Origin: Escherichia coli
GTDB taxonomy: Bacteria > Pseudomonadota > Gammaproteobacteria > Enterobacterales > Enterobacteriaceae
Assembly (NCBI RefSeq): GCF_003018115.1
Contig: NZ_CP027457.1
Reading direction: 5' to 3' (one strand)
Length of the DNA: 64,000 bases
The position numbers are program-made. Numbering within the stretch: the stretch's first letter is position 1; each line of letters opens with the position of its first letter. Of the stretch, positions 10,901-13,900 are shown piece after piece.

Positions 10901-13900
10901 CTTCCCGACGGTGGAAGTCATCGCCAACCTGAAGATGCTCGACAGCTACGCCGGTTTAACGCTGCCGCTGATGGCCTCGGCGACCGCGACGTTTCTTTTC
11001 CGCCAGTTCTTTATGACCCTACCGGATGAACTGGTGGAAGCCGCGCGGATCGACGGCGCATCGCCAATGCGCTTCTTTTGCGACATCGTTTTTCCGTTGT
11101 CCAAAACTAATCTGGCGGCGTTGTTTGTGATCACCTTTATTTACGGCTGGAACCAGTATTTGTGGCCGTTGTTGATTATTACCGACGTGGATCTCGGCAC
11201 CACCGTGGCAGGGATCAAAGGGATGATCGCCACTGGCGAAGGCACCACGGAATGGAACTCGGTGATGGCTGCTATGTTGTTAACGCTTATCCCTCCGGTG
11301 GTGATTGTTTTAGTGATGCAGCGTGCCTTTGTGCGCGGCCTGGTCGATAGTGAGAAATAAGATGGCAGGACTGAAATTACAGGCAGTAACCAAAAGCTGG
11401 GATGGCAAAACCCAGGTGATTAAACCACTGACCCTTGATGTGGCGGATGGCGAATTTATCGTGATGGTCGGGCCGTCTGGCTGCGGAAAATCGACGCTGC
11501 TGCGCATGGTTGCCGGGCTGGAGCGGGTGACGGAAGGCGATATCTGGATCAACGACCAGCGCGTGACCGAAATGGAGCCGAAAGATCGCGGGATTGCGAT
11601 GGTGTTCCAGAACTACGCGCTTTATCCGCATATGAGCGTCGAAGAAAACATGGCGTGGGGGCTGAAAATTCGCGGCATGGGCAAGCAGCAAATAGCCGAG
11701 CGCGTTAAAGAAGCGGCGCGCATTCTGGAGCTGGATGGCCTGCTTAAGCGCCGCCCGCGCGAGCTATCCGGCGGTCAGCGTCAGCGTGTGGCGATGGGTC
11801 GCGCGATTGTGCGCGATCCGGCGGTGTTCCTGTTTGATGAGCCGCTCTCTAACCTCGATGCCAAGCTGCGCGTGCAGATGCGCCTTGAGCTGCAACAGCT
11901 GCACCGTCGCCTGAAAACGACTTCACTCTACGTTACTCACGATCAGGTTGAAGCGATGACGCTCGCCCAGCGAGTAATGGTGATGAACGGCGGCGTTGCC
12001 GAACAGATTGGCACGCCAGTTGAAGTGTACGAAAAGCCCGCCAGCCTGTTTGTGGCGAGTTTTATCGGCAGCCCGGCGATGAACCTGCTGACAGGCCGCG
12101 TGAATAATGAAGGCACGCATTTCGAACTGGACGGCGGTATCGTGCTACCGCTAAACGGTGGCTACCGTCAGTATGCCGGGCGTAAAATGACTCTCGGCAT
12201 TCGCCCGGAACATATAGCGCTAAGCTCGCAGGCAGAAGGTGGTGTGCCGCTGGTGATGGACACGCTGGAGATCCTCGGCGCAGATAACCTGGCGCACGGA
12301 CGCTGGGGCGAGCAGAAGCTGGTGGTGCGACTGGCGCATCAGGAGCGCCCGACGGCAGGCAGCACGCTGTGGCTGCATCTGGCGGAAAATCAGCTGCATC
12401 TTTTTGATGGTGAAACAGGACAACGAGTATGAGTAACTGGCCTTATCCCCGCATCGTCGCTCATCGTGGCGGCGGTAAGCTGGCCCCGGAAAACACCCTG
12501 GCGGCAATCGATGTCGGGGCAAAATACGGTCATAAGATGATCGAATTTGACGCGAAGTTATCGAAAGATGGCGAGATCTTCCTGCTCCATGACGACAATC
12601 TCGAACGCACCAGCAACGGCTGGGGCGTCGCGGGTGAACTGAACTGGCAGGATTTACTACGCGTGGATGCGGGCAGTTGGTACGGCAAAGCGTTTAAAGG
12701 TGAGCCGCTGCCGTTGCTTTCGCAGGTGGCGGAACGCTGTCGCGAACATGGGATGATGGCGAATATCGAAATCAAACCCACCACTGGCACTGGGCCATTA
12801 ACGGGCAAAATGGTGGCGCTGGCGGCACGCGAGCTGTGGGCCGGTATGACGCCGCCGCTACTGTCATCGTTTGAGATTGATGCTTTAGAAGCTGCACAAC
12901 AGGCGGCACCGGAACTGCCGCGTGGTTTATTGCTTGATGAGTGGCGCGACGACTGGCGCGAACTGACCGCGCGGCTGGGCTGCGTCTCTATTCATCTCAA
13001 TCATAAGTTACTCGATAAAGCGCGAGTGATGCAGTTGAAAGACGCCGGATTACGGATTCTGGTTTATACCGTCAATAAACCCCAGCGCGCGGCAGAGTTG
13101 CTGCGCTGGGGCGTGGATTGCATCTGTACCGATGCGATTGACGTGATTGGTCCGAACTTTACGGCCCAATAGTTTTCAACGGAATGTCAGGCTGCGGCGT
13201 GCTGGGCTGATTCAGCATGTCGCCGTTTCTCCTCTCCGGCAGCATATGTTGCTGATTCAACGAACTATCCGGATTACGGTTGCTGTTTAACATCCCGCCG
13301 TTGGTGTTGGGCAGCATTTGCTGCCGGGCGGGATTTCGCTCCCCCGGCTGTGACTGCAACACCCGCTGAGAATTATTGTTTATCTGGTTTTCTAAATGCT
13401 GCTGTTGCAACTGAGTTTGCGTTTTCAGTTGCTGATTCAGCATCCCTTTTTGCTGGATTTGCTGAGTCTGCATTTGGGTTTGCATCCGCTGCTGGCTGGG
13501 TATCTGATACCCCGGCTGGTTAGGGTTGTTCAGAGTATTAATGGGCTGTGCAAAGCCGACAAACGGCAGGAGTGCCGTAAGAATCAGAAGTCGTTTCATC
13601 GCGTATCCTCCTCTGAAGATATCCTTTAAGTTTACTCGCTTCCCGACAAAACGATGATTAATTCAGAGTTATATACCAGGCTTAGCTGGGGTTGCCCCTT
13701 AATCTCTGGAGAATAACGATGATAAAACCGACGTTTTTACGCCGGGTGGCCATTGCTGCTCTGCTCTTAGGAAGTTGTTTTAGCGCCGCCGCCGCGCCTC
13801 CTGCGCCGCCCGTCTCGTATGGTGTGGAGGAAGATGTCTTCCACCCGGTACGCGCGAAACAGGGAATGGTAGCGTCTGTGGACGCCACTGCCACTCAGGT

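Follow-up and report, generated by a model that had tools for sequence, protein, structure and literature searches.

The locus explored in this study lies in a window of 64,000 nucleotides of Escherichia coli (contig NZ_CP027457.1), in which positions 13159 to 13599 of the minus strand carry yhhA, a gene for a protein of 146 amino acids that opens with an ATG at 13599 and closes with a TAA at 13159-13161. The protein matches the Pfam family DUF2756 with 202.9 bits (cut-off 21) over the whole of the model (positions 1-105 of 105), and the NCBIfam equivalog PRK10350 with 265 bits (cut-off 136; positions 1-145 of 145). It is the E. coli member of this family, with no difference from it and with the synteny ggt, yhhA, ugpQ in common. 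We hold the identity of YhhA and its anatomy, as described here, to be virtually beyond doubt. The features of the region, in window coordinates, are as follows:

12429..13172, plus strand: ugpQ (glycerophosphodiester phosphodiesterase), convergent neighbour; Pfam GDPD E 2e-55 and annotation
13072..13111, minus strand: intrinsic terminator of yhhA inside the ugpQ coding sequence, stem-loop at 13080-13111; CCCCAGCGC...GCGCUGGGG, then UUUAUUGA
13159..13172, no strand assigned: 14 bp shared by the coding sequences of yhhA and ugpQ where the two converge; from the ORF ends, with the ugpQ TAG at 13170-13172
13159..13599, minus strand: yhhA coding sequence (146 codons and TAA); ORF, Pfam and NCBIfam matches, RefSeq annotation yhhA
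13162..13341, minus strand: predicted disordered tail, residues 87-146; pLDDT <50, motif conservation and dN/dS
13194..13223, plus strand: weak hairpin resembling a terminator of ugpQ, within the coding sequence of yhhA, tentative; consensus scan, fold z-score only -1.7
13342..13548, minus strand: conserved core, residues 18-86 (N/P-rich lead-in, Gln-rich segment, closing QRVLQSQPG); conserved columns and low dN/dS
13354..13500, minus strand: predicted long polar alpha-helix, residues 34-82; AlphaFold2 on a 30-sequence alignment, pLDDT 70-84
13549..13599, minus strand: signal peptide, codons 1-17; hydropathy, the -3/-1 rule and the invariant A17-Q18-P19, with an inferred cleavage site
13607..13613, minus strand: Shine-Dalgarno sequence GAGGAGG, 7 nt 5' of the yhhA ATG; read from the sequence, with a GGAGG-like block conserved in the alignment
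13629..13634, minus strand: -10 element of yhhA, TAAACT followed by TAA, of sigma-S/sigma-70 type; comparative alignment
13719..15461, plus strand: ggt (periplasmic gamma-glutamyltranspeptidase), divergent neighbour; Pfam G_glu_transpept E 1e-194 and synteny

Of 5426 complete E. coli genomes, all but two (5424) carry the gene, K-12 included, and the family ranges over the Enterobacteriaceae and a few Erwiniaceae, with Klebsiella, Enterobacter and Kosakonia also carrying it at a fixed chromosomal site. The arrangement around it, with ggt divergent and ugpQ convergent, is kept in about 66 of the 70 loci compared, which come from more than 20 genera, and ggt and yhhA have a common control region of 119 bp. 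In Erwinia psidii, ugpQ is still convergent to the yhhA homologue, and at one locus (L074) the homologue persists without ugp or ggt. Purifying selection acts on the gene, as measured by dN/dS, and the protein has been seen by mass spectrometry in both E. coli and Salmonella. YhhA is near-universal in the species, strongly conserved and, as detailed below, stress-induced and abundant in the envelope. The gene, its composition and its overlap with ugpQ are already in databases and in the literature, which makes the finding itself an ordinary one; what is gained here is a sharper description of YhhA (two modules, a promoter, a buried terminator and a set of excluded families), not a function.

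The preliminary description had called YhhA secreted, and this is borne out by a Sec-type signal peptide together with the recovery of the protein from envelope and surface extracts. Its N-terminus has a basic n-region (MKR), a hydrophobic core of 13 residues and the small residues G and A at -3 and -1, from which we predict, by rule, a cleavage between A17 and Q18 (G-F-A/Q); the A17-Q18-P19 stretch is unchanged in 30 homologues. YhhA is not a lipoprotein, because it has no Cys. In surface extracts of STEC it ranked among the top 15 proteins by abundance, with HdeB, SodC, ZraP, YmgD and PsiF (PMC9731836), and it has been quantified in Salmonella beside YahO, PsiF and Spy (PMC4265081), as well as in the proteome of ESBL E. 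coli (PMC9927464).

The mature protein (129 amino acids) consists of 22.5% Q, 14.0% N, 10.9% P and 5.4% M. A comparison with the three neighbouring proteins shows a strong enrichment of Q (P=3e-14) and N (P=4e-6) and a modest one of P (P=0.008), but none of Met (7 of 129, P=0.15). The earlier view that Q, N, M and P dominate the protein thus holds strongly for the first two and modestly for P; since Met is not enriched, "dominated by M" was an overstatement. Mature YhhA is also basic (pI about 10), lacks Cys and Trp, has a Gln+Asn content of 32-44% and a GRAVY of -1.40, and both the basic charge and the composition are kept across the 30 homologues.

Beyond its composition, YhhA is built of two modules, a conserved polar core that is predicted to be helical and, following it, a predicted disordered tail with short motifs. 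Over more than 20 genera, the core (residues 18-86) has 29 invariant columns and 33 more that are at least 90% conserved, and its dN/dS of 0.013-0.028 is as low as that of ggt (0.02-0.07 for ugpQ and ggt). It is also the part kept by distant short homologues, for example from Erwinia, and of the 5424 complete genomes a single one has a large deletion in it, although slippage alleles exist. The term low-complexity, used for YhhA previously, therefore suits the Gln/Asn bias but not residues 18-86, which are conserved position by position. AlphaFold2 predicts residues 34-82 as a single helix of 49 residues, roughly 7 nm long. This predicted helix has a maximum hydrophobic moment of 0.39, no better than that of shuffled sequences, and no heptad periodicity (power 0.01 at period 3.5), so it would present no obvious binding face. 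A coiled coil or an amphipathic helix was rejected on the heptad test, the shuffled moments and a construct with two tandem copies of the core, for which the AlphaFold2 pLDDT was lowered to 60-65, from 70-84 for the single core.

In the tail, four Met-Leu motifs and the C-terminus are conserved. The tail as a whole evolves faster than the core (dN/dS 0.16-0.32); Klebsiella, Raoultella and Kluyvera, like the distant short forms, lack it or carry a divergent version. In the charge-hydropathy plot YhhA falls on the disordered side (<H> 0.344 vs a boundary of 0.424), and so do core and tail separately; as even the core lies there, the helix may form only transiently. The suggestion that YhhA is intrinsically disordered is thus sustained for the tail, with its pLDDT below 50, and by the overall composition and charge-hydropathy, but has to be qualified for residues 34-82, with their predicted helix at a pLDDT of 70-84. 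Searches of the PDB, by profile and by Foldseek, gave no match to YhhA. Tandem Repeats Finder found no tandem repeats in yhhA at the DNA level, and internal repeats in the protein are weakly supported (self-alignment 56 vs 40.7 +/- 6.8, with 9 of 300 shuffles doing as well); a periodicity of 15 residues that we had noticed by eye was not significant.

Upstream of the gene, a scan with the sigma-70 consensus gave no promoter for yhhA, and the conserved -10 element emerged only from the comparative alignment, where T, A, A, C and T of TAAACT are invariant across 19 genera. In vitro, the sigma-S holoenzyme gives a genomic-SELEX peak in the spacer between ggt and yhhA (PMC5493296). The expression of yhhA increases on entry to stationary phase (with rpoS and rmf), after an acid shift and in a multi-stress meta-analysis, and upon inhibition of LolCDE it rises 5.6-9.9-fold, together with that of elaB, ytfK, ycaC and the wca genes. 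From the conserved -10, the in vitro binding of sigma-S and this co-expression, we conclude that yhhA is very probably a general-stress gene. The capture of YhhA by a ppApp probe has also been described (PMC9310846), but we consider it uninformative where the protein is exported.

At its other end, yhhA runs into ugpQ, and the 14-bp convergent overlap reported previously is confirmed, positions 13159-13172 being shared by the two coding sequences. Coding overlap is present in 55 of 69 loci, most commonly with a length of 4 bp; the 14-bp form is limited among these loci to Escherichia, Cedecea and one Enterobacter sp. locus, and no overlap was seen in Klebsiella, Raoultella, Buttiauxella and Siccibacter. 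The terminator of yhhA has an RNA fold z-score of -4.6 (none of 200 shuffles folds equally well), and its hairpin and U-tract are kept in Escherichia, Lelliottia, Klebsiella pneumoniae, Raoultella and Trabulsiella. Because the yhhA transcript ends inside ugpQ, the two mRNAs overlap in antisense, and by RNA-seq yhhA-ugpQ is one of 165 convergent excludons of MG1655 (PMC12288877). No Rfam family was detected between 12400 and 14000.

Based on these results, the best explanation overall is that YhhA is a stress protein of the periplasm, not an enzyme, and that it acts by binding; we give this reading an even chance of being right. The protein would be abundant in the periplasm and would act without catalysis, either folding on one or more envelope partners or contacting them multivalently; another protein, the peptidoglycan or an anionic surface of a membrane would be candidates, and the likely setting would be stationary phase or envelope stress. 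The combination of a conserved, non-amphipathic polar helix, as predicted, with short hydrophobic motifs repeated in the tail is the pattern expected for partner binding. The binding or protectant mechanism as such, drawn from this sequence pattern and from expression, is more tentative, and our confidence in it is clearly less than even.

YhhA resembles Spy, CpxP, ZraP, YahO, YmgD, PsiF and HdeB in its small size, export by Sec, induction by stress, helical or disordered character and abundance, and in its presumed lack of catalysis, and it appears in the same proteomic lists. The Spy/CpxP/ZraP clan, however, is made of helical hairpins, unlike the polar, non-amphipathic helix predicted in YhhA. 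A weak match to Pfam Metal_resist (20 bits, cut-off 29.2), seen in only 3 of 19 family members, had prompted us to consider homology to this clan, which we rejected on hhalign probabilities of 1.7% for ZraP, 0.15% for Spy and 0.19% for CpxP. Like YhhA, the Rz-like i-spanins start with a hydrophobic segment and continue into a long helix in the periplasm, which in YhhA is a predicted one. Weak PHROG spanin matches (E about 3e-4) were found in 2 of the 19 family members, both distant, and not for E. coli YhhA; we judge them to be compositional. A prophage-like region carries one homologue, and its weak PHROG matches had raised the idea of such an origin. By tblastn, no YhhA homologue was found in genuine phage genomes: the query P0176 gave no match, and the three matches of E. 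coli YhhA came either from the chromosome of Salmonella or from a 4.3-kb record that has no annotation. A spanin or phage origin was rejected, as the locus has no Rz1 partner or lysis cassette, lies in a ggt/ugp context and has no phage homologue.

The alternative that fares best, although we consider it unlikely, is that YhhA is purely disordered and driven by composition, as an entropic filler or a hydrophilin- or LEA-like shield that retains water, so that only its Gln, Asn and Pro content matters. The similarities to hydrophilins and LEA-like proteins are evident in the hydrophilicity of YhhA, its disordered-type composition (with the charge-hydropathy position and tail pLDDT given above) and its induction by stress and in stationary phase; the predicted helix without an amphipathic face and the viability of in-frame indel alleles of yhhA fit as well. 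In contrast, hydrophilins are cytoplasmic whereas YhhA is exported and conserved in sequence beyond its composition. Hydrophilins are reportedly delimited by a hydrophilicity index above 1 and a Gly content above 6%; the GRAVY of YhhA is in keeping with the first of these values, but its Gly content of 5.4% lies below the second, and we do not class it among them. More importantly, a function in composition alone is not expected from the conservation pattern: 29 invariant columns and so low a dN/dS in the core would be surprising for a filler, and the indel alleles, although viable, are very rare in complete genomes.

A further alternative is that YhhA self-assembles in the periplasm or on the surface, as a coiled coil, gel, condensate or amyloid/prion-like material, for instance into a protective matrix in stationary phase. 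A census of Q/N-rich regions is said to have used a threshold of 30 Q+N per 80 residues, and residues 21-100 of YhhA, with 36, exceed it. YhhA shares this richness, and a predicted helical propensity of its Gln-rich segment, with Q/N-rich prion-like domains of the eukaryotic type, and its high abundance in surface extracts would agree with an assembled form. It differs from those domains in being periplasmic, Pro-rich and strongly conserved in sequence, and modelling the core in tandem brought no gain in confidence. Given also the lack of a heptad signal, the 10.9% Pro and the dispersed charges, we regard self-assembly as improbable.

To the same low degree we can credit a role of the locus mainly as RNA, in which the convergent transcripts of yhhA (general stress) and of the ugp operon (phosphate starvation) would interfere as an excludon, the protein being secondary. 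The frequency of the coding overlap, the terminator embedded in ugpQ and the place of the pair in the MG1655 excludome speak for such interference. Nevertheless, the overlap is absent from the four genera named above, and the homologue at L074 survives where neither ugp nor ggt is found. Furthermore, the strong purifying selection and the abundance of YhhA indicate that the protein itself is selected. An excludon at the RNA level and binding by the protein could coexist, so that both roles might be played at once.

A bolder combination of these ideas would make YhhA a periplasmic counterpart of the eukaryotic Q/N-rich assembly domains: driven by the multivalent Met-Leu motifs together with the predicted polar helix, it would reversibly form gels or condensates in stationary phase or under envelope stress and so shield envelope components, and the antisense overlap of yhhA with ugpQ would cross-wire its production to the genes of phosphate starvation. 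This is a speculation to which we assign a small probability.

Slightly less probable again is that YhhA serves as a Met-based periplasmic buffer, either absorbing oxidants, with repair by MsrP, or acting as a sponge for Cu(I)/Ag(I). SilE and PcoE are exported, disordered proteins of about 140-150 amino acids that contain Met, and YhhA is close to them in size, likewise exported and, in its tail, predicted to be disordered. Six of its seven mature Met (M39, M43, M53, M103, M119 and M128) are invariant or nearly so, M95 being the one that varies, and four of the Met positions fall in the otherwise variable tail. Against such a buffer, Met is not enriched, distant homologues carry only 1-4 Met, and no metal-responsive regulation of yhhA is reported in the literature examined. 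With zero HxxM, MxxH, MxxM and MxM motifs and only two His, YhhA was also rejected as a sponge of the SilE/PcoE type.

Lastly, it is very improbable that attaching/effacing E. coli use YhhA as a type III secretion effector, mimicking S/TQ substrates of the ATM kinase in the host. A preprint (bioRxiv 10.1101/364117) gives the EPEC orthologue B7UKZ9 as experimentally validated in SecretEPDB and points out conserved S/TQ and QS/T dipeptides. However, the Sec signal peptide, of the classical kind, is conserved in all YhhA homologues, practically every E. coli, K-12 included, has the gene, as do other genera at its fixed chromosomal site, S/TQ dipeptides are expected by chance at 22% Gln, and leakage would readily account for a periplasmic protein in a culture supernatant.

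The part of the window examined covers ugpC-ugpQ / yhhA / ggt on the E. coli chromosome, and the features considered in it are as follows.

12429-13172, + strand: ugpQ, Pfam GDPD, with its stop codon TAG at 13170-13172
13159-13599, - strand: yhhA, ATG at 13599 and TAA at 13159-13161, 146 residues that include the string quoted in the preliminary description
13194-13223, + strand: weak terminator-like hairpin for ugpQ, inside yhhA
13607-13613, - strand: strong Shine-Dalgarno sequence of yhhA, GAGGAGG
13629-13634, - strand: -10-like element of yhhA, TAAACT, then TAA

The yhhA ORF matches two models over their full length, Pfam DUF2756 with 202.9 bits (cut-off 21) and the NCBIfam equivalog PRK10350 with 265 bits (cut-off 136), and YhhA certainly belongs to this family. 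An 801-bp stretch was found in 5424 of the 5426 complete E. coli genomes, where the annotation is yhhA, "DUF2756 family protein". Records of yhhA, of the family and composition of its product and of the overlapping transcription existed already; what our analysis still adds is a sharper definition of an abundant envelope protein as a target for characterisation. The stop codons confirm the convergent 14-bp overlap with ugpQ that had been described, since exactly positions 13159-13172 are common to both coding regions, tail to tail. At 13150-13172, UgpQ of E. coli is three residues (TAQ) longer than in most other genera, which turns the usual 4-bp overlap into one of 14 bp.

Downstream of the yhhA stop, a strong intrinsic terminator lies on the - strand, with a stem-loop at 13080-13111 (CCCCAGCGC...GCGCUGGGG) followed by UUUAUUGA and a fold z-score of -4.6. 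This terminator (13072-13111) is built entirely of ugpQ codons, and the same bases are coding on one strand and terminator on the other. The hairpin and U-tract, detectable in only some genera, are retained in Escherichia, Lelliottia, Klebsiella pneumoniae, Raoultella and Trabulsiella. Because the terminators are embedded in the opposite gene, the yhhA and ugpQ mRNAs must overlap by roughly 100-160 nt, and this is consistent with MG1655 RNA-seq, in which yhhA-ugpQ is among the 165 convergent excludons called (PMC12288877).

Upstream of yhhA, the T, A, A, C and T of the -10-like TAAACT are invariant in 19 genera. The element fits the sigma-S/sigma-70 -10 consensus. The ggt/yhhA spacer holds a sigma-S holoenzyme genomic-SELEX peak (PMC5493296), and yhhA is up 2.5-fold on entry to stationary phase, clustered with rpoS and rmf (PMC2241611), 5.6-9.9-fold on LolCDE inhibition, alongside elaB, ytfK, ycaC and wca genes (PMC5105897), after an acid shift (PMC2270276, PMC7824302), and, according to a meta-analysis, under several stresses (PMC9501238); these published data agree with yhhA being a general-stress gene. 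As for the protein, YhhA is one of the 15 most abundant in STEC surface extracts, with HdeB, SodC, ZraP, YmgD and PsiF (PMC9731836), and has been quantified in Salmonella next to YahO, PsiF and Spy (PMC4265081). Besides the -10 element, a block of roughly 35 bp at ~13650-13685 in the spacer is conserved across 19 genera (consensus on the yhhA strand TTAAGCCTGGTTCAxAACTCTTAAAAAATCATCGT); it may be the promoter of ggt or a regulator site common to both genes.

Searching 5.8 billion proteins yielded 467 relatives, and a profile run against 1.84 billion representatives only 80, so the family is small and without paralogues. When 30 sequences from different genera were aligned, 29 columns were invariant and a further 33 were conserved at 90% or above, concentrated in residues 18-86 (the core) and including QQKGMLNQQ...QQQHLExQINNN..QRV.QSQPG, which shows that YhhA is not drifting low-complexity sequence. 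Within Escherichia, pairwise dN/dS of the core is 0.013-0.028, as low as that of ggt (0.024-0.038) and ugpQ (about 0.06), and that of the tail (86-146) is 0.16-0.32. The tail keeps across genera four Met-Leu motifs, one ending [DS]ML, and a C-terminal PQPxIPLKTI[GST]P. In distant short homologues of 87-110 aa, as in Erwinia psidii, it is absent, and only the signal peptide, NPSQQRMQxQM, the Gln-rich helix and QRVxxSQPG are kept. We also observed that synonymous divergence in the core (13342-13548, compared with the homologous loci L002 and L018) exceeds that of the tail and flanking genes within Escherichia (NG86 dS 0.65-0.93 against 0.14-0.32), and that E. albertii differs at 11 of 35 two-fold codon sites in the core against 26 of 271 in ugpQ and ggt; method bias for two-fold codons explains part, not all, of this excess.

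Protein databases hold E. coli alleles of 96 to 165 aa (P0001-P0035, P0092, P0107), which arise when the Gln-rich core (13330-13500) gains 9-17 aa by in-frame duplication or loses 3-50 aa by in-frame deletion. The sizes of these alleles are consistent with slippage between short direct repeats in the DNA, for example the 13-nt GCTGATTCAGCAT at 13431 and 13461, spaced 30 nt apart. Such alleles are rare, as more than 20% of the core is missing in only one of 5424 complete genomes, and the length of YhhA is therefore maintained although its sequence is mutable.

The N-terminus, MKR followed by a 13-residue hydrophobic core and G-F-A|Q-P, has the make-up of a cleavable Sec signal peptide, with A17-Q18-P19 invariant among homologues; YhhA has no Cys and is thus not a lipoprotein. 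Of the 129 residues of mature YhhA, Gln makes up 22.5%, Asn 14.0%, Pro 10.9% and Met 5.4%. Compared with the three neighbouring proteins, the enrichment is huge for Gln (P=3e-14) and for Asn (P=4e-6) and mild for Pro (P=0.008), and Met shows none (P=0.15). The homologues are all basic, with a net charge of +2 to +7 and a pI of about 10; none has Cys or Trp, and Gln+Asn account for 32-44% of their residues. AlphaFold2, run on the 30-sequence alignment, predicts a single unbroken helix at 34-82 with pLDDT 70-84; all else is predicted as coil, and most of 87-146 has a pLDDT under 50. This polar helix has no heptad periodicity and a hydrophobic moment no higher than in shuffled sequence. By charge-hydropathy, both core and tail lie on the disordered side, and the helix may thus be transient or binding-induced. 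The preliminary description of an exported, Gln/Asn-rich, disordered protein therefore holds for export, for composition apart from its emphasis on Met, and for the tail, but YhhA also has a core that is strongly conserved and probably helical.

YhhA is exported, abundant and stress-induced, with a core under residue-by-residue constraint and a tail that is predicted to be disordered yet carries repeated short hydrophobic motifs. It showed neither an enzyme-like domain nor a cofactor motif, and no structural homologue of it was found. The reading that we tentatively place first is a stoichiometric periplasmic stress protein acting by binding, in which the polar helix and multivalent Met-Leu motifs would engage at least one partner or surface in the envelope. 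A purely compositional, disordered shield would also suit such a tail and seems rather unlikely, as core conservation is sequence-specific; such conservation on a helix that has no amphipathic face points to a defined partner or to folding upon binding rather than to purely compositional "filler". Self-assembly driven by Q/N is less probable again, with no backing from the heptad analysis or from an AlphaFold2 test of tandem cores. We give a similarly low chance to a mainly RNA-level role of the excludon, which can coexist with the other readings. A Met-based redox or metal buffer is quite improbable, given that YhhA has no motifs for it and is not enriched in Met. Least credible is a type III effector, a label traced to SecretEPDB through bioRxiv 10.1101/364117; the label is at odds both with the conservation of a Sec signal peptide and with the presence of the gene at a fixed site in K-12 and many other genera.

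YhhA may work like the small periplasmic stress proteins Spy, CpxP and ZraP without being a member of their clan. Kinship was suggested by weak matches of 3 of 19 family members to Pfam Metal_resist (20 bits, cut-off 29.2), but in hhalign comparisons with ZraP, Spy and CpxP of E. coli the probability stayed below 2%. Kinship with spanins was likewise rejected, as weak PHROG "Rz-like spanin" matches of a prophage-borne homologue did not extend to the YhhA family or phage genomes. YhhA narrowly misses the hydrophilins on Gly content and, with 36 Gln+Asn within residues 21-100, counts as Q/N-rich by the census threshold.

In a one-genome-per-species sample of 70 loci, all of them from Enterobacteriaceae genera (including Escherichia, Citrobacter, Salmonella, Enterobacter, Klebsiella, Raoultella, Kluyvera, Kosakonia, Leclercia, Lelliottia, Buttiauxella, Cedecea, Siccibacter, Trabulsiella and Phytobacter), about 66 have yhhA between divergent ggt and convergent ugpQ-ugpC. 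In Erwinia psidii, yhhA is still convergent with ugpQ. The 3' overlap is 4 bp in 35 loci, 7-20 bp in 20 and none in 14. An overlap of 14 bp occurs in Escherichia, Cedecea and one Enterobacter sp., and none in all Klebsiella and Raoultella loci analysed and in some of Buttiauxella, Siccibacter and Cedecea. At one locus (L074) yhhA adjoins asd, yhhN and zntA, with ugp and ggt absent, so the association with ggt and ugp seems to reflect conserved gene order in the backbone and not an obligatory functional link.

Some loci depart from this arrangement. In Erwinia psidii (L071, 4680-5750), genes for an AvrPphF-like type III effector and a CesT-family chaperone lie between ggt and the yhhA homologue, with an OspG-like kinase gene nearby. 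A JGI metagenome contig (L073, 6001-6264) encodes an 87-aa DUF2756 homologue (P0176), placed in the manner of a moron in a prophage-like region, antisense between a large-terminase gene and capsid/portal genes; it had no homologue in 50,697 phage records. Escherichia sp. MOD1-EC7003 (L003) has an intact yhhA and lacks the adjacent ggt and most of ugpQ, and in Citrobacter amalonaticus AUH_CA_2023_1 (L044) and Kluyvera genomosp. 3 (L066) ugpQ and ggt are broken, yhhA being truncated as well in the latter; these three loci could be pseudogenes or assembly errors.
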